Shown: positions 3,703-32,000 of the stretch, one piece after another
Layout: the number at the start of each line of letters is the position of its first letter
How positions within the stretch are numbered: position 1 is the first letter of the stretch
Assembly: GCF_964059045.1 (NCBI RefSeq)
Contig: NZ_OZ060402.1
Coordinates: forward strand, 1 to 32,000
Source: Candidatus Saccharimonadota bacterium
GTDB lineage: Bacteria; Pseudomonadota; Gammaproteobacteria; Enterobacterales; Enterobacteriaceae
Reading direction: 5' to 3'
Length of the DNA: 32,000 bases
Program-made: the position numbers and the translations under genes
Notes under the pieces: model-generated
The model's input: only the letters and a program-made list of their open reading frames with translations
What the model was told of the DNA's origin: nothing
The model's database searches: none

Positions 3703-4173
3703 TTGAATTTAAATGCTACGATTTTAGGACAAACAATTTCGTTTATTTTTTTTGTTTGGTTTTGTATGAAATTTATTTGGCCTCCTGTAATTACAATGAT
3801 TGAAAAAAGAAAAAAAGAAATTATAGATTCTTTTAATTTGATTAAAAAAAGAAAAACAGAATTATTATTAAAAGAAAATGAAATAAAAAAAATAATAGAA
3901 CATGCTCATATAAAATCTGATGAAATTATAAAAAAAGCATATATTAGTCAGAATGATATTATTGAAAAAGCAAAAAAAAAAGCTATAAAAGAAGAACAAA
4001 AAATAATGGAAACAATGAATTTAAAATTAGAATTAAAATATAATAAAATCAATGAGGAACTACAAAAAAAAACAGGATTGTTAGCAATAATAATAGCAGA
4101 AAAAATATTAAAACGTTCTATTAATAAAAAAGACCATGAAAATCTTATTCATCAAATAATATCAAAATTTTAA
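3703..4173 (+). CDS. atpF: F0F1 ATP synthase subunit b
   Basis: 156 aa, TTG start. N-terminus MNLNATILGQ is identical to E. coli AtpF. One TM helix followed by a long charged helix. Confidence 0.94.
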   Translation: MNLNATILGQTISFIFFVWFCMKFIWPPVITMIEKRKKEIIDSFNLIKKRKTELLLKENEIKKIIEHAHIKSDEIIKKAYISQNDIIEKAKKKAIKEEQKIMETMNLKLELKYNKINEELQKKTGLLAIIIAEKILKRSINKKDHENLIHQIISKF

Positions 4174-4718: not shown

Positions 4719-4732
4719 GAGAAAAATAATGT

Positions 4733-6271
4733 ATGCAATTAAATGCTATTGAAATAAGTGAATTAATACAAAAAAGAATTACTCAATTTGAAATTGAGTA
4801 TAAAATGGAAAATGAAGGAAAAATTATTTCTGTTGTTGATGGTATTATAAAAATATATGGTTTATCTCAAGTAATGCAAGGTGAAATGTTGTTAATACCA
4901 TCATGCAAAACATTTGCAATTGCTTTAAATTTAGAAAGAGATTCAGTCAGTGCTATTATTATGGGACCTTATACACATATCACTGAAAATATGACTATTA
5001 AATGTACGGGTAAAATACTAGAAGTTCCTGTAGGAGAAGAATTGCTAGGAAGAGTAGTAAATACATTAGGTGAACCAATTGATGGAAAAGGAATAATTAA
5101 TTATAAACAATTTTCTTCTGTTGAAAACCATGCTCCAAACGTCATTAACAGAAAATCTATTCATGAACCCATCCAAACTGGTTATAAATGTATAGATACT
5201 ATTATTCCTATTGGAAAAGGTCAAAGAGAATTAATTATAGGAGATAGACAAACAGGAAAAACAACACTTGCTATAGATACAATTATTAATCAAAAAAAAA
5301 CAAATATAAAATGTATTTATGTTTCTATAGGACAAAAAATCTCTAATGTTGTAAATATTGTTGAACAATTAAAAAATCATAAAGCATTACATAATACTAT
5401 TATATTAGTAGCTTCAGCATCAGAATCAGCTGCTTTACAATATTTATCACCATATTCTGGATGTTCCATGGGTGAATATTTTAGGAATAAAGGTGAAGAC
5501 GCTTTAATAATTTATGACGATTTATCTAAACATGCTATAGCATATAGACAAATTTCTTTACTATTAAAAAGACCACCTGGACGTGAAGCATATCCTGGAG
5601 ATATATTTTATTTACATTCGCGATTATTAGAAAGATCAGCATGTATTAATGAAAATTATGTAGAAAAATTGACTAAAGGAAAAATAAAAAATAAAACAGG
5701 ATCATTAACAGCATTACCCATTATTGAAACCCAAGAAGGAGATGTTTCTGCTTTTGTACCGACTAATGTTATTTCAATTACAGATGGACAAATATTTTTA
5801 GAAAGTAATTTATTTAATTCTGGTATTAGACCAGCAGTAAATCCAGGAATTTCAGTTTCTCGGATTGGAAGTGCTGCACAAACTCAAATAATTAAAAAAT
5901 TATCTGGAGGAATTAGAACAGCATTAGCTCAATATAGAGAATTAGAAGCTTTCTCACAATTTTCTTCAGATTTAGATGATGTTACTAAAAAACAATTAAT
6001 AAATGGGCAAAAAATAACTGAATTACTAAAACAAAAACAACATATGCCATTATCTATAGCAGAACAAGCTATACTTTTATTTGCTTCAGAAAATAATTAT
6101 TTTGATGATATTGAAGTTAAAGATATTACTTTATTTGAATATAAATTATTAGAATTATTTAATGATAAACATAAACAACTAATACACAATATTAATAAAA
6201 ATGGTTTATATAATGAAGAAATAAAAAATGAATTTCATTTAATTATTAAAAAAATTAATATAAAAGAATAA
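4733..6271 (+). CDS. atpA: F0F1 ATP synthase subunit alpha
   Basis: 512 aa. Walker A GDRQTGKT. Long conserved blocks ([36 protein letters not shown]). Confidence 0.98.
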
Positions 6272-8620: not shown

Positions 8621-9028
8621 ATGAATTGTTATCTTAATGTTGTTAGTCTCGAAAAAAAAATCTTTTCAGGAAAGATATTAAAAATAAAAATATCCGGTAT
8701 AGAAGGAGAACTTGGAATTTATCCTGGTCATTCTCAATTGTTAACCATGATTCAACCAGGATTATTAGCCTTAACCAATATAGATAAAACAACAGAATAT
8801 ATTTATTTATCCGGTGGTATTTTAGAAATACAACCGCAATTAATTACTATTTTATCTGATACAGCAATCCGAGGAGTAGATTTAGATATTGAATTAATAA
8901 AAAAATCAAAAAAAGAAGTAGAAAAAATGATTAAAAATAATGTTAACAAAATTGATTTAAAAATAAAATTAATACAAACTATTGCAAAATTGAAAGTTAT
9001 TGAAGTGATGAAAAAATCAAAAAATTAA
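8621..9028 (+). CDS. atpC: F0F1 ATP synthase subunit epsilon
   Basis: 135 aa, last gene of the cluster. GELGIYPGH and LSGGILEIQP motifs are typical of epsilon. Confidence 0.94.
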   Translation: MNCYLNVVSLEKKIFSGKILKIKISGIEGELGIYPGHSQLLTMIQPGLLALTNIDKTTEYIYLSGGILEIQPQLITILSDTAIRGVDLDIELIKKSKKEVEKMIKNNVNKIDLKIKLIQTIAKLKVIEVMKKSKN

Positions 9029-9034
9029 AATGTT

Positions 9035-9084
9035 ATCAATGAAAGCTTTTTAATTAAAATTTTAATTAAAAAGCTTTCATTGAT
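9035..9084. terminator. 50-bp perfect palindrome, putative bidirectional terminator between convergent atpC and gyrB
   Basis: ATCAATGAAAGCTTTTTAATTAAAA|TTTTAATTAAAAAGCTTTCATTGAT. Every position pairs with its mirror (checked 9035<->9084 through 9059<->9060). Starts 6 nt after the atpC stop. Confidence 0.6.
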
Positions 9085-9236: not shown

Positions 9237-11651
<2,415 letters not shown>

Positions 11652-26243: not shown

Positions 26244-27056
26244 ATGTATAAAATTATTGTATCTGATTTAGATGGAACACTATTAACATCTCAATATAAT
26301 ATTACTGATTTTACTAAAAAAATATTATTATTATTAATTTCTAAAGGAGTGCATTTTATTTTTGCAACTGGTAGACATTACATAGATGTATTTAAAATTA
26401 GTGATAATTTAAATATAAAATCATATATGATTACATCTAATGGTTCTCAAATATACAATCAAAAAAAAGAATTAATTTTTAATCAATTTTTATTAAAAGA
26501 AATTGCTATTTCTTTATGTAAAATTAGATATATAGATAAAGAAATTATGACTCATTTATATTGTAATCATCAATGGTATACAAATTCATCTTGTTCCAAA
26601 AAAAATATTTTTTGTAAAAAATTATTTTTAAAAAATAAAATTTTTAATTTAGAAAATTTTTGTTTTGATAAAGTTAACAAGATATTTTTCACTTCTAATA
26701 ATATTAAAAAATTAAAATTATTAGAACAAGAAATATTAGAAATATGGAGTAATAAAAAAAATATTAATATTTTTTTTTCATTTCCAGAATGTTTGGAAAT
26801 TGTTCCTTGTGGTGTTTCAAAAGGATCTGCATTAAATATTATATTAAAGTTAATAGGATATTCTTTAAGTGATTGTATTTCTTTTGGAGATGGTATGAAT
26901 GATCAAGACATGCTGAATATATCTGGAAAAGGATGTATAATGAAAAATGCAGATCCTTGTTTAAAATTAGCCCTTCCTCATTTAGAAATCATAGGTGATA
27001 ATAATAATAATGGATTAGCACATTATTTATGCAAAATATTTCATATTAATATATAA
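26244..27056 (+). CDS. yigL: Cof-type HAD-IIB sugar/pyridoxal phosphatase, YigL-like
   Basis: 270 aa. HAD motif I SDLDGTLL, FATGRH, IKSYMITSNG (identical to E. coli YigL), GDGMNDQDML. Located next to metR as yigL is in E. coli. Confidence 0.82.
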   Translation: MYKIIVSDLDGTLLTSQYNITDFTKKILLLLISKGVHFIFATGRHYIDVFKISDNLNIKSYMITSNGSQIYNQKKELIFNQFLLKEIAISLCKIRYIDKEIMTHLYCNHQWYTNSSCSKKNIFCKKLFLKNKIFNLENFCFDKVNKIFFTSNNIKKLKLLEQEILEIWSNKKNINIFFSFPECLEIVPCGVSKGSALNIILKLIGYSLSDCISFGDGMNDQDMLNISGKGCIMKNADPCLKLALPHLEIIGDNNNNGLAHYLCKIFHINI

Positions 27057-27109: not shown

Positions 27110-27994
27110 TCAAAATAATTTATTCATATTTAATTTTATAAATTTTACAAAATCTATAATTAAAGATTTTTGTTTTTCTTCAGGACGAATAGCTGCATAT
27201 AAATTACTCCATAAACCTTTATATCCCAATTCTCTTGTTGCTACTAAACCTTGTTTTTCGAAATTATAAACTACCCAATAAGGTAAAGCAGTGACTCCCA
27301 TCTTGGCAGATACCATTTGAATTAATAAAGATGTATTATCTACATTTTTAAATAATGGAATGATTCCAGCAGGTTTTAAAAAATGTTTCCAAATATCTAA
27401 TCTAGTAAGATCTATTGGATAAATCATTACTATCTCTTTTTGTAGATCTATCGGTAAAATATTTTTTTTTTTTAATAAAGGATGATCTATAGACATAACT
27501 AAACGAATTTCAAATTTAAAAACAGATAAATAAGATAATTTAGATTGATATAAAATGTCTGAAGTAAATACTAAATCGATTTTACCTTTTTGAAGATCTG
27601 GTTGAGGATTAAATATAACTTCTGATTTTAAGTTTATTTTTCGTTCTGGCCATTTTTTTTTAAATTTCATTAAAATTGGAATTAACCATTGAATACAACT
27701 ATGACATTCAATAGCAATATGTATGGTTTTTTTATAATTATGATAACATGATTGCATAGCTATTTTAATTGTTGGTAAAATTTTTTCAGATAAATTTAAT
27801 AAAATTTTACCTTGTACAGTAAATTCTAAAGGTATACTTTTTCTTATGAATAATTTAAATCCTAATTGTTGCTCTAATTTATTTATTTTATGAGACAAAG
27901 CAGATTGTGTTTGATGTAATTTTATTGCTGCTGCCGTAATTGAATTACTATTTTTTAATTCTTGTAATATTTTTAGATGTTTGATTTCAATCAT
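27110..27994 (-). CDS. metR: LysR-family transcriptional activator MetR
   Basis: 294 aa. MIEIKHLKILQ...LHQTQSALSHKINKLEQQLGFKLFIRKS and IAIECHSCIQWL match E. coli MetR closely. Divergent from metE. About 20 aa shorter than E. coli at the C-terminus. Confidence 0.93.
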   Translation of the reverse strand: MIEIKHLKILQELKNSNSITAAAIKLHQTQSALSHKINKLEQQLGFKLFIRKSIPLEFTVQGKILLNLSEKILPTIKIAMQSCYHNYKKTIHIAIECHSCIQWLIPILMKFKKKWPERKINLKSEVIFNPQPDLQKGKIDLVFTSDILYQSKLSYLSVFKFEIRLVMSIDHPLLKKKNILPIDLQKEIVMIYPIDLTRLDIWKHFLKPAGIIPLFKNVDNTSLLIQMVSAKMGVTALPYWVVYNFEKQGLVATRELGYKGLWSNLYAAIRPEEKQKSLIIDFVKFIKLNMNKLF

Positions 27995-28121: not shown

Positions 28122-30398
28122 ATGACAATTTTAAATCATATTCTTGGTTTTCCTAGAATTGGTTGTAATCGAGAATTAAAACAAGCACAAGAAAAATATT
28201 GGAATAATCTTATTTCACAAAAAGAATTATTATCTGTAGGATACAATATAAGAAAATATAATTGGAGAAAACAAATAGAAGAAAAGATAAATTTTTTAAC
28301 TGTTGGTGATTTTGCTTGGTATGATCATGTTTTAAATACTAGTATGTTATTAGGAAATATTCCTGAAAGGCATAAAAATATTGATAAATCAGTTGATTTG
28401 GATACTTTGTTTCGTATTGCTAGAGGGCACGCACCAACTGGTCAATCAGTTGCAGCTTCTGATATGACAAAATGGTTTGATACGAATTATCATTATATAG
28501 TACCAGAATTTTTTGAAAATCAAAATTTTAGTTTAAATTGGATACAATTATTTCAAGAAATTGATGAGGCTTTACTACTCAATCATACCATAAAACCTGT
28601 CATTTTAGGTCCTTTGACTTATCTTTGGTTAGGAAAATCAAAAAATAATTCTTTTAATAAATTAGATTTATTAAATAGTATATTACCTGTTTATAAAAAA
28701 ATATTAAAAGAAATTTCAAAAAGAAATATTACATGGATTCAAATTGATGAACCTATATTAGCATTAGAATTACCGACAGAATGGAAAAAATCTTTTATTT
28801 TAACATATAATTATTTATATAGTTCTATAAAAATATTATTGACCACTTATTTTGATAGTATAAATCATAATTTAGATATAATAACTCAATTACCAATACA
28901 AGGATTACATGTTGATGTTATATTTGGTCAATATAATTTATCTAAGTTAAATAAAATTATACCAATAGATTGGGTTCTTTCTTTAGGTGTAATTAATGGT
29001 AGAAATATTTGGAGAACAGATTTAATTAAATGGTTTCAATTAATACAACCAATAACTAATATGCGTACTAATTTATGGATTAGTACTTCATGTTCTTTAT
29101 TACATGTTCCTGTAGATTTAAATATTGAAAAAAATTTGAATGATGAAATTAAAAGCTGGTTTGCTTTTGCAATACAAAAATGTACTGAGCTTAATTTATT
29201 AACTGATGCATTAAATAATAATGATACATATAAAATTAATGAATGGAGTAAACCAATTCATACTAGAAAAAATTCAAATTTAGTACATAAAATAAATGTC
29301 CAGGATAAATTAAATTCTATTACTGAACAAAATTTTCATCGAAAAAATAAATATTCTATTCGATCTCAAATTCAAAATAAAAAATTTAATTTTCCAATTT
29401 TGCCAACTACTACTATTGGTTCTTTTCCTCAAACTGTTGAAATTAGAAAATTACGTTTAGATTTTAAAGAAAAAAATATAACTAAAGAAAAATACAACCA
29501 AAAAATTTCAAATTATATTAAAGATATTATACATGAACAAGAAAAAATTAATTTAGATGTTTTAGTACATGGTGAACCAGAAAGAAATGATATGGTAGAA
29601 TATTTTAGTAAAAAATTAAATGGATTTATATCAACTTCTCATGGTTGGGTTCAAAGTTATGGTTCACGCTGTGTCAAACCACCAATTATCATTGGAGATA
29701 TCAGTCGATCTGAAGATATGACTGTTAAATGGTCAAGATATGCACAATCTTTAACTAAAAAACCAGTTAAAGGAATGTTAACAGGTCCTGTAACTATGTT
29801 ATGTTGGTCTTTTTCAAGAGAGGATTTAAGTAAAAAAAATATTGCGAATCAAATTGCATTAGCCTTAAGAGATGAAGTGCACAGTTTAGAAAAATCTGGT
29901 ATTCAGATTATTCAAATTGATGAACCAGCTTTAAGAGAAGGTTTACCATTACGAAAAAGCTTATGGGATAATTATTTATTATGGGCAACAAATGCATTTA
30001 AATTAGCATCTTCTGGAGTTAATGATGAAACACAAATTCATACTCATATGTGTTATTGTGAATTTAATGACATTATGAATTCTATTTTATTGTTAGATGC
30101 AGATGTAATTACTCTTGAAACTTCTAGATCTGACATGGAGTTATTAGAATTCTTTAAAGAATTTAATTATGTTAATTCAATAGGACCTGGGGTATATGAT
30201 ATTCATTCTCCTAATATTCCTACTGTAGAATGGATTGAGAATTTATTAAAAAAAGCACTAAATTATATCTCATTAGATAGACTATGGGTAAATCCTGATT
30301 GTGGTTTAAAAACTCGAAATTGGAAAGAAACAAGAAAAGCATTAAAAAATATGATTACAGCGGTTAAGAATATTCGTTCTAAAATGAATAGTATTTAG
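28122..30398 (+). CDS. metE: Cobalamin-independent methionine synthase MetE
   Basis: 758 aa (753 in E. coli). [61 protein letters not shown] (zinc ligands). Confidence 0.97.
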
Positions 30399-30519
30399 CA
30401 TTGTACAAAAAAAAGATGCTTCATTTTAAAAATGAAGCATCTTTTTTTTGTACAATGCTAAATACTATTCATTTTAGAACGAATATTCTTAACCGCTGTA
30501 ATCATATTTTTTAATGCTT
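30337..30519. repeat. 183-bp perfect palindrome (91-bp inverted arms around a single centre base at 30428) spanning the metE 3' end, the whole spacer and the purH stop
   Basis: I checked every pair i <-> 60856-i from 30427/30429 out to 30337/30519 and found no mismatch. Symmetry breaks at 30336/30520 (A/A). Confidence 0.95.
30407..30449. terminator. Core bidirectional intrinsic terminator inside the palindrome
   Basis: A8 (30407-30414), 13-bp stem GATGCTTCATTTT / AAAATGAAGCATC, T8 (30442-30449). This A-tract/hairpin/T-tract architecture can terminate both convergent transcripts. Confidence 0.6.
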
Positions 30520-32000
30520 AAAATGCCTTATATTAGTAAAAATCATAATCATATTGTATTCATTTACTGCTTGAATCACTTCTTTATCACGAATAGATCC
30601 ACCTGATTGAATAATACAATTTACACCATTCTTTTTTGCTATATCGACATTATCTCTAAAAGGAATAAAAGCATCTGAAGCCATAATAATATTTTTAATT
30701 TTTATTTTTTGGTCTATTAATTTGAGATTTGCTATTTTTGTTGAATATATACGACTTGTTTGGCCTGAACCAATACTAATAGTTTTTTTGTTTTTTACAT
30801 ATACTACAGCATTTGATTTTACAAATTTTACTACTTTCCAAGCAAAAATTGCATCTTCATATTCTTCATGATTTGGTTTACAATTACTAACTATAGTCCA
30901 TGTTTTTTCGTTGATATTTTCAGAATCAATATCTTGAACAAGAACACCACCATTAATTTGCTTAAAACTAAATTTATTTTTTTGTTTTTGAATATTAGAA
31001 CAGATTAATACTCTTATGTTTTTTTTTGTTTCTAATATTTTTAATGCATTTTTACTAATATTAGTTGCAATAATTACTTCAACAAATTGTTGATTAATTA
31101 TAGTTTGAACTGTATCAGAATTTAATAAACCATTAAATGCTATTACACCACCAAATGCAGATGTAGGATCACATTTATATGCAGAGATATATGCATTAAT
31201 AATAGAGATGTTTTCTGATACTCCACAAGGTGTACCATGTTTTACAATAACGCATGCTGGTTTTAAAAAAGTTTTAACACATTCCCAAGCAATATCAGCA
31301 TCAGATAAATTATTATATGATAATAATTTTCCTTGTATTTGTTTTGCAGCAACAATATCAGTAGGTTTTTGAGTATTATCAAAATATAAAGCTGCTTTTT
31401 GATGATGATTTTCACCATAACGTAAATTTTGTTTTTTAATAAGATTCAAATTAATGATTTTAGGTAAATATATAAAATTATTTTTTTCATTATAATATTC
31501 ATTATATTTGGTTTTTAAACATCCAAAAATAATAGAATCATATTGAGAAATATATTCAAATGCTTTACATGCCATGTAAAATTTATTTTTTATAGGAAAA
31601 TTATTATTATTTTCATCAAGTATTTTGATTGCTTTTTTATAATCTAAAGGGTCAGTTAAAACCATAACATCTTGATGATTTTTAGCGGCAGATCGAATTA
31701 AAGTTGATCCACCTATATCAATATAATTTATAATATCATCCATATTATTAATATTTTTTGACATATTTTCTAAAAATGGATATAAATTAACAACAACAAT
31801 GTCAATTGGAATTATATTATATAATTTCATTACAGCATCATCTTTTTTTCTTCTTCCTAAAATTCCTCCGTGAATTTTAGGATGTATAGTTTTTATTCTT
31901 CCATCCATTAATTCAGGAAATTCAGTATAATCTGAAATATTTTTAAAAGGAATGTTATTTTTTTTTAAAAATACAGATGTACCTCCTGTTGATAATATAT
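30511..32000 (-). CDS. purH: Bifunctional AICAR transformylase / IMP cyclohydrolase PurH (5' end lies beyond the window)
   Basis: The track ORF starts at an internal Met ([20 protein letters not shown] = E. coli [20 protein letters not shown], about residue 63). The frame stays open to position 32000 (..[29 protein letters not shown]). The C-terminus NIRHFKH resembles E. coli ..RHFRH. Confidence 0.96.
   Translation of the reverse strand, partial: [495 protein letters not shown]

Follow-up and report, generated by a model that had tools for sequence, protein, structure and literature searches.

A perfect palindrome at the metE/purH junction of aphid symbionts, probably grown from a terminator hairpin and kept by arm-to-arm copying

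We analysed a stretch of 32,000 nucleotides (contig NZ_OZ060402.1, positions 1 to 32,000; hereafter the window) that came from Buchnera aphidicola, the symbiont of the aphid Eriosoma grossulariae, since the MetE and PurH proteins encoded in it were 100% identical to the proteins of this symbiont. The convergent genes metE and purH were joined there by a perfect palindrome of 183 base pairs (bp) that reached into the ends of both genes. Similar palindromes were present at the same junction in four other Buchnera, and in each case the two arms had changed in lock-step. We consider it probable from these comparisons that an inherited terminator hairpin grew into the coding tail of metE and was kept perfect by RecA-independent copying from arm to arm at the DNA level.

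The metE gene (28122-30398, + strand) was an open reading frame (ORF) of 758 amino acids encoding the cobalamin-independent methionine synthase; its product was 100% identical to CAL4317980.1/WP_367676607.1 and had the Pfam domains PF08267 and PF01717 (Meth_synt_1/2). The purH gene (30511-32000, - strand) encoded the bifunctional AICAR transformylase/IMP cyclohydrolase with the Pfam domains MGS and AICARFT_IMPCHas. It was an intact open frame that continued past the window end and was a 100% match to the 528-amino-acid PurH. The palindrome had two arms of 91 nucleotides (nt) each (30337-30427 and 30429-30519), which were 100% complementary around a single centre base, A, at position 30428. The left arm contained the final 59 coding nt of metE (codons K-A-L-K...N-S-I), the TAG stop codon (30396-30398) and 29 non-coding nt that included a run of eight A and a 13-nt core stem. 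The right arm was its exact reverse complement and had the same G+C content (GC) as the coding arm, namely 0.24. It formed a non-coding mirror of the metE tail and reached the purH stop (30511-30513, TTA on the + strand), supplying this stop and the last two purH codons. Consequently, the 112-nt spacer between the two genes was palindrome throughout. The coordinates of the palindrome had been given in a first-pass annotation of the sequence, and both a repeat search and direct reading reproduced them. The same annotation took the metE tail for the native copy and the purH flank for the derived one. We agree, because the C-terminal tail of MetE aligned with the MetE C-termini of other Buchnera, so that the left arm was native and the right arm was the copy. 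The mirrored mini-ORF that it described on the - strand (30458-30505) followed from arm symmetry and was most simply explained as a by-product of it.

The palindrome was far beyond chance expectation. The strong fold anticipated for 30300-30550 was obtained on both strands: the RNA folding energy was -138.9 kcal/mol on the + strand (z = -24.6) and -138.1 kcal/mol on the - strand (z = -26.9), with a shuffle mean of about -34.6 for either strand, and the DNA hairpin fold of 30337-30519 reached -99.8 kcal/mol (z = -30.4). The runner-up among perfect palindromes of the window (9035-9084) had arms of 25 nt. No second copy of the non-coding arm sequence was found anywhere in the 32-kb window. A dispersed palindromic repeat or mobile element was rejected (repetitive extragenic palindromes or bacterial interspersed mosaic elements, miniature inverted-repeat transposable elements, and IS200/IS605-type ends were considered), as the arm was unique in the window and derived from the local metE tail. 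A known structured RNA family was rejected as well, because Rfam 15 gave only sub-threshold matches to generic microRNA-precursor hairpin models.

The centre of the palindrome (30407-30449) had what appeared to be the canonical layout of a bidirectional Rho-independent terminator: eight A (A8, 30407-30414), a 13-bp stem (30415-30427 paired with 30429-30441) and eight T (T8, 30442-30449). According to the folding, transcripts ending at the T8 tract formed only a 20-bp core hairpin on either strand, and the long 91-bp duplex formed only in read-through transcripts. Thus, the earlier proposal that a metE transcript can bury its own last codons in a 91-bp duplex was correct for read-through and did not extend to transcripts terminated at T8. 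A consensus terminator scanner reported 0 sites, likely because it was applied to a continuous palindrome in which the stem runs through the T tract. Termination neither needs nor explains the symmetry beyond the A and T tracts.

The metE 3' regions of seven further Buchnera lineages were compared with the window, and four of them had a long palindrome. In a second Eriosoma Buchnera (locus L081, OZ060395.1; MetE 74% identical), the arms were 76 nt long and 97% identical, enclosed an inner 14-bp stem with a 19-nt loop, and mirrored 58 coding nt of metE. Their flaws were two mismatches (5219C·5404A and 5288C·5335T) and a 1-nt register shift ahead of the inner stem. The symbiont of Eriosoma harunire (L082, CP188086) had arms of 71 nt (4741-4811 and 4813-4883) at 100% identity around a 1-nt centre, with 28 coding nt mirrored. 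The symbionts of two Mindarus species also had arms at 100% identity. Namely, these were 146 nt long with a 1-nt centre in M. keteleerifoliae (L084, CP135024; 293 bp, 91 coding nt mirrored) and 129 nt long with a 0-nt centre in M. japonicus (L090, CP135030; 258 bp, 85 coding nt mirrored). Across the five carriers, the mirrored part of metE therefore ranged from 28 to 91 coding nt (31 to 94 with the stop codon). The terminator cores of the other Eriosoma and Mindarus Buchnera (AAAAAGAGGATGCT, AAAAGGATGCTAC and AAAAAGAAGGCGCT) were probably homologous to the core in the window. The hairpin centre consisted of A and T only in four of the five carriers and was A/T-rich in E. harunire. We dropped loop-centre symmetry as evidence for a particular switching mechanism, since centres made only of A and T were too often symmetric by chance. 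The metE palindrome was the sole long palindrome in every locus examined (the 32-kb window and seven loci of 5-8 kb). As a separate observation, the inner non-coding arm of M. keteleerifoliae (L084 4778-4829) included an extra G-rich stretch of 13 nt within GTCAGGTGGATGGGAAGGAATGGTC that was absent from M. japonicus (L090 4772-4812). This stretch was mirrored exactly in the opposite arm, and the inner non-coding arm had a GC of 0.40 in a genome of 24% GC.

The mirrored metE tail was not found in the remaining three Buchnera, which had plain terminator hairpins at this site. The hairpin arms were 22 nt in L085 (OZ060370.1), 16 nt in L086 (OZ060408.1) and 27 nt in L091, an Aphidinae-type Buchnera represented by short-read contigs. 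Local alignment against 2000 shuffles gave no trace of the mirrored tail in L085 or L091. Two of these three lineages kept the metE/purH arrangement. In L086, metE was followed by trkH rather than purH (region 3778-4003); trkH was on the same strand as metE, so that this lineage was rearranged locally in comparison with the others, and the terminator was a plain perfect palindrome of 32 bp (3785-3816). As negative controls we used 157 metE loci from outside Buchnera, comprising 78 low-GC metagenomic loci and 79 loci of free-living enterobacteria. The latter were the matches of a contig scan with full-length MetE, in which the universal HMCYCEFN motif led to free-living Enterobacterales only. 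None of the 157 metE 3' ends had a mirrored tail: each contained at most three mirrored 12-mers, whereas the five carriers had 20-83, and perfect arms reached 12 nt at most. This led us to reject the mirrored tail as a general trait of metE 3' ends. One more contig (P0133/L089) turned out to be unrelated and contained purH-purD, and for the protein P0041, probably of Baizongia, an exact-protein search gave no match.

Comparison of the carriers provided the main evidence for copying between the arms. Arm identity was 97-100% within genomes and 64-83% between species, and each right arm mirrored the metE tail of its own genome. Between the arms of the Mindarus pair there were 22 substitutions and two indels (19 gap columns), with every change mirrored in both arms. 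In the five-species alignment, 65 of the 100 consensus pairs had changed on both sides with pairing kept, and G-U pairs were almost absent. The synonymous divergence (dS) of metE was 0.60 between M. keteleerifoliae and M. japonicus, 0.60 between E. grossulariae and L081, and 0.81 between E. grossulariae and E. harunire. At dS values of 0.6-0.8, an unconstrained arm should show tens of differences from its partner, whereas the arm-to-arm differences in the five carriers amounted to 0, 0, 0, 0 and 2-3 positions (an observed divergence of 0-3%). This argued for arm-to-arm copying. In addition, the GC of the right arms was 0.24-0.38, as in coding DNA, compared with 0.07-0.14 in the adjoining free spacers.

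The borders of the arms suggested that the structure was inherited. The outer border was located at the same nucleotide in both Mindarus species (TTTAAAAACAAGAAC...), and those of E. grossulariae and L081 matched within 1 nt (AAGCATTAA and AGCATTAAG, respectively); the flanks beyond the border were unrelated in the border-sharing pairs. Since borders were shared in two species pairs, inheritance was favoured over independent accidents. Taken together, these patterns indicated that the palindrome arose before at least two speciation events and that its arms are made identical again and again. As four of the five copies were perfect, the arms would, by a rough inference, be converted several times faster than they mutate. 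The first-pass annotation had offered four options for the lack of divergence between the arms: a very recent origin, ongoing arm-to-arm correction, selection, or an assembly artefact. It further reasoned that an equally long palindrome with double changes in sister strains would exclude a recent accident and make a conserved function likely. Palindromes equally long or longer, with changes on both sides, were indeed present at the same junction of related strains. This spoke for ongoing correction and against a recent accident; a function did not follow from the conservation, because copying at the DNA level accounts equally well for the perfect Watson-Crick identity, the variable arm length and the absence from other Buchnera.

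The place where the palindrome met purH could be explained by a later event in the E. grossulariae lineage. In L081 and E. harunire, the arm was separated from purH by an AT-rich spacer of 80 and 93 nt, respectively. In the window, the right arm ended in 9 nt (AAGCATTAA/TTAATGCTT, 30511-30519) that were at the same time the purH codons K-H-stop. The purH gene ended in AAA-CAT/CAC-stop in six other lineages and in AAG-CAT-TAA in the window alone, so that, where the arm overlaps purH, the lysine codon had changed synonymously to AAG, in the direction opposite to the AT bias. The arm end TTAATGCTT and the purH end TTAATGTTT formed direct repeats with 8 of 9 positions identical. Because L081 had its border within 1 nt of that in the window and still kept an 80-nt spacer, the outer border predated the purH abutment. 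We suggest that the ancestral arm already ended in ...TTAATGCTT and that in the E. grossulariae lineage a slippage deletion between the arm TTAATGCTT and the purH TTAATGTTT probably removed the spacer of about 80-90 nt. The retained repeat copy would have changed the purH lysine codon synonymously, and the arm would now supply the last two codons and the stop of purH. The occurrence of AAG in the window alone suggests, although it is no proof, that the arm overwrote the last codons of purH. It was proposed earlier that the 9-nt microhomology AAGCATTAA marked the landing site of a fold-back copy. The 9-nt overlap was real, and a landing at this site would give the same sequence; given the border and spacer of L081, it appeared to be less parsimonious than the slippage deletion.

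The scenario that we favour would start from a bidirectional intrinsic terminator, an ordinary hairpin located where metE and purH converge. Fold-back (template-switch) copying in an ancestral lineage would have extended this hairpin outward, so that the purH-side flank became the reverse complement of the metE 3' tail. Afterwards, repeated arm-to-arm copying at the DNA level would have kept the arms identical. There were two candidate routes for this copying, both of which could be seeded by the terminator hairpin. The first was RecA-independent intramolecular template switching at the hairpin during replication (quasipalindrome correction of the Ripley type and inverted-repeat expansion); in E. 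coli, the quasipalindrome process is RecA-independent. The second was mismatch repair in an extruded hairpin or cruciform, for which RecA would not be needed either. It has been reported that RecA is absent from all Buchnera and that nearly all homologous-recombination proteins are lacking (PMC1193525). The left arm, which encodes the MetE C-terminus, would remain under purifying selection, and conversions writing damaging right-arm changes into metE would be purged. As a result, the non-coding mirror would be slaved to metE: it would track the gene, hold a coding-like GC, and be protected from the drift towards AT and the deletions by which free spacers are eroded. With the mirror slaved in this way to a selected metE tail, its persistence could be explained without any function, and none would seem to be needed for the extension.

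Several observations nevertheless weighed against this scenario. The palindrome of E. harunire was shorter and had a different border, and the borders of Eriosoma and Mindarus differed too, so that some re-extension or an independent origin would be needed. A decayed outer arm in E. harunire (4721-4745 versus 4911-4935, 72%) was considered and rejected, as local alignment against 2000 shuffles gave no signal. The third-codon GC of the mirrored metE codons was 0.20-0.35 (30337-30395 in the window, and the corresponding codons of L081, L082, L084 and L090), compared with 0.10-0.15 gene-wide. In pooled counts, it was 31/110 in the carriers and 10/93 at the same 31 codons of the three palindrome-free lineages (Fisher p = 0.0026, with lineages that were not independent of each other). 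This increase was not predicted by unbiased copying, and it suggests GC-biased repair or selection for stem stability, possibly a function. Template switching and hairpin mismatch repair would also be expected to leave identical sequences. Moreover, palindromes of 183-293 bp would have to be tolerated, presumably through the loss of SbcCD-type hairpin cleavage. Finally, the support at the level of reads was limited to E. harunire.

A more far-reaching version of the scenario, which we hold only tentatively, would be that RecA-independent, hairpin-mediated and possibly GC-biased gene conversion is active in Buchnera, a symbiont commonly regarded as free of recombination and defenceless against AT-biased decay. 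In that case, the terminator would have turned into a self-renewing palindrome whose mirror is re-templated from the end of an essential gene and is able to write back into it.

An explanation that we regard as rather unlikely is that the palindrome was selected as a structural element. The RNA duplex of 70-150 bp in read-through transcripts might be cut by RNase III or block exonucleases, insulate the convergent genes or set mRNA 3' ends, with pairing selected on two strands. The palindrome persisted across speciation (dS of about 0.6) in genomes prone to losing non-coding DNA, its read-through fold was very strong on both strands (-138 kcal/mol), and strict Watson-Crick pairing without G-U would be expected when both strands are transcribed. 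The GC increase seen both in the non-coding arm and at the third positions of codons could also reflect selection for stem stability. On the other hand, arm length and the mirrored amount of metE varied widely, and the mirrored tail was absent from three Buchnera, of which two shared the metE/purH arrangement. Transcripts terminating at the T tract never contained the long stem, and no Rfam family was above the threshold. It also seemed that 100% identity over 129-146 nt with mirrored indels exceeded what RNA pairing needs and was typical of DNA copying.

It was improbable in our view that inheritance played no role, that is, that the terminator hairpin was a mutational hotspot at which each lineage acquired its own recent fold-back copy, perfect because it was young. 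The differences between the borders (71 nt in E. harunire, about 91 nt in the other two Eriosoma, 129-146 nt in Mindarus) would fit such separate events, and so would the lack of decayed remnants beyond the present arms and the flawless state of four of the five copies. However, the Mindarus pair and, within 1 nt, E. grossulariae and L081 shared their borders despite a dS of about 0.6. The copy in L081 was already diverging (two mismatches, a 1-nt register shift and a 19-nt loop) and hence was not very young. Five events at this one junction, with none at the other terminators in the 32-kb window and in the seven loci of 5-8 kb, would be a striking coincidence.

Fold-back chimeras are known to show up as perfect palindromes with a centre of 0-1 nt. 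The palindrome could thus be an artefact of the library or the assembly, in which fold-back chimeric reads arose at a strong hairpin or polishing homogenised imperfect arms; several of the assemblies were polished with Pilon. The E. harunire genome (CP188086) was a Nanopore assembly (miniasm, Racon) polished with the Illumina run SRR33632139 (Pilon), and a separate short-read k-mer assembly (Logan) of SRR33632139 served as the second data set. The Logan contigs L083 and L088 had zero mismatches to CP188086; the metE contig ended at position 4770 of L082 and the purH contig at 4854, so that both stopped exactly 30 nt inside an arm. The k of this assembly was presumably 31, and breaks at 30 nt were expected because unitigs of k = 31 must break at a true inverted repeat. 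The purH-side end at 4854 was predicted in advance and then found. In the Illumina-only contig L088, the purH flank was joined to 30 nt of reverse-complemented metE codons. Therefore, the Nanopore and the short-read k-mer assemblies agreed on both arm borders, and the assembly artefact that had been among the options of the first-pass annotation was not supported for E. harunire.

The other assemblies led to the same result. The Mindarus genomes came from another group (Illumina 2x150, MEGAHIT, NOVOPlasty, Geneious, Pilon). For the window, the project most probably relied on reads of 251 bp assembled with SPAdes at k values of up to 127; read length and maximal k were both above the 91-nt arm length. 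The locus L081 was from the submitter series of the window (adjacent OZ accessions) and nevertheless retained its two mismatches and 19-nt loop, indicating that this pipeline does not force perfect arms. Overall, the structure was reproduced in five lineages, with four pipelines and two read technologies. With read-level checks that covered E. harunire, an artefact was very hard to believe, given that four projects with different pipelines (probably SPAdes with 251-bp reads; Nanopore with miniasm/Racon/Pilon; MEGAHIT/NOVOPlasty/Geneious/Pilon; independent short-read contigs) gave the same structure, that fold-back chimeras create no fixed junction of mirror and purH flank such as the one in L088, that L081 kept its mismatches, and that the 91-nt arms were shorter than the reads (251 bp) and the maximal k (127) that were reported for the project. 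Since k-mer assemblies break at the arms, carriers with an arm starting further upstream would have metE truncated at a contig end. This may be the reason for the lack of exact-protein matches to the window MetE among short-read contigs.

The remaining part of the window contained several genes identified with NCBIfam models: MnmG (216-2117), AtpC (8621-9028), GyrB (9237-11651, - strand), YigL (26244-27056) and MetR (27110-27994, - strand, 388.8 bits). These neighbouring ORFs indicated that the window was origin-proximal. The palindrome at 9035-9084 was 50 bp long with 25-nt arms and a 0-nt centre and started 7 nt past the atpC stop at the convergent atpC/gyrB junction. It was entirely intergenic and resembled another terminator made perfect, with no growth into coding sequence. 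The metR gene was intact in the window, and a LysR-type gene was also located upstream of metE in L085 and L091. No LysR-type gene was called upstream of metE in L081, L082, L084 and L090, and L082 had only a 48-amino-acid YigL fragment. Thus, the presence of metR did not track the palindrome.

The palindrome shared features with several known systems. Like bidirectional Rho-independent terminators, it appeared to have the typical core layout, and it occupied the site where L085, L086 and L091 had plain hairpins; unlike in terminators, its symmetry did not end at the A and T tracts but ran on for 50-125 nt, crossed the stop codon and entered the coding sequence. In E. coli, long perfect palindromes are inviable or are deleted through SbcCD cleavage. 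With 183-293 bp and an AT-rich centre, the Buchnera palindromes belonged to the same hairpin- or cruciform-extruding class (for background, see PMC4948707), but they appeared to be stably inherited in a natural chromosome, presumably because of SbcCD loss and relaxed hairpin processing.

The closest parallel was the quasipalindrome correction and inverted-repeat expansion by template switching (the Ripley model, with hotspots in E. coli and cases in yeast and primates; PMC8604942, PMC13100816, PMC7954356), where a short inverted repeat seeds arm copying and the products have perfect complementarity, clustered substitutions and outward arm growth. In agreement with this, a short inverted-repeat seed was seen as the plain hairpins of L085, L086 and L091, and the differences between lineages appeared as mirrored copies. 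However, the template-switch mutations described so far were usually single events of a few to tens of nt. In Buchnera, the arms were 71-146 nt long and overlapped an essential coding tail, and perfection was kept through speciation, implying many successive events. Large palindromes with arm-to-arm conversion were similar in their near-identical arms within a genome, divergence between species, conserved borders, symmetric indels and buffered genes (human Y and X, PMC8327919 and PMC6790999; plastid inverted repeats; plasmid inverted repeats with symmetric indels, PMC13155455). As in these systems, identity within Buchnera genomes was higher than between species, and borders were shared in two species pairs; they were not shared between genera or by E. 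harunire. Large palindromes also differ in having arms of kb to Mb, a spacer and homologous recombination, compared with arms of about 100 nt, a 0-1-nt centre, no RecA and one coding arm in Buchnera. Conversion of the RecA/Rad51 type did not fit, as RecA is absent according to the literature (PMC1193525).

It was already known that template switching can homogenise and expand inverted repeats and that large palindromes undergo arm-to-arm conversion, and our literature searches found no prior description of the Buchnera metE palindrome. What was new was the combination of perfect palindromes of about 140-290 bp, their inheritance across species, the overlap with an essential coding tail (and, in the window, with the last codons of purH) and a RecA-less endosymbiont.

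These findings have a practical side, as k-mer assemblies break exactly at such arms and truncate metE in short-read contigs. For the biology of Buchnera, they suggest that perfect palindromes of a class (about 180-290 bp) that is not kept in E. coli were stably inherited here in natural chromosomes, where they overlapped an essential gene. The arms evolved in lock-step, and this is evidence, taken directly from the sequences, that intramolecular conversion is frequent in a RecA-less genome, which is a textbook case of evolution without recombination. The junction may serve as a natural system for measuring how fast RecA-independent template switching or hairpin repair proceeds, how long its tracts are and how strong its GC bias is. 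It may also show to what extent the policing of secondary structures is relaxed by genome reduction, and whether a non-coding copy coupled to a selected gene protects or burdens that gene. If the more far-reaching version holds true, the palindrome would be a bacterial counterpart, in miniature, of the Y-chromosome palindromes and would shield its sequence locally from Muller's ratchet.

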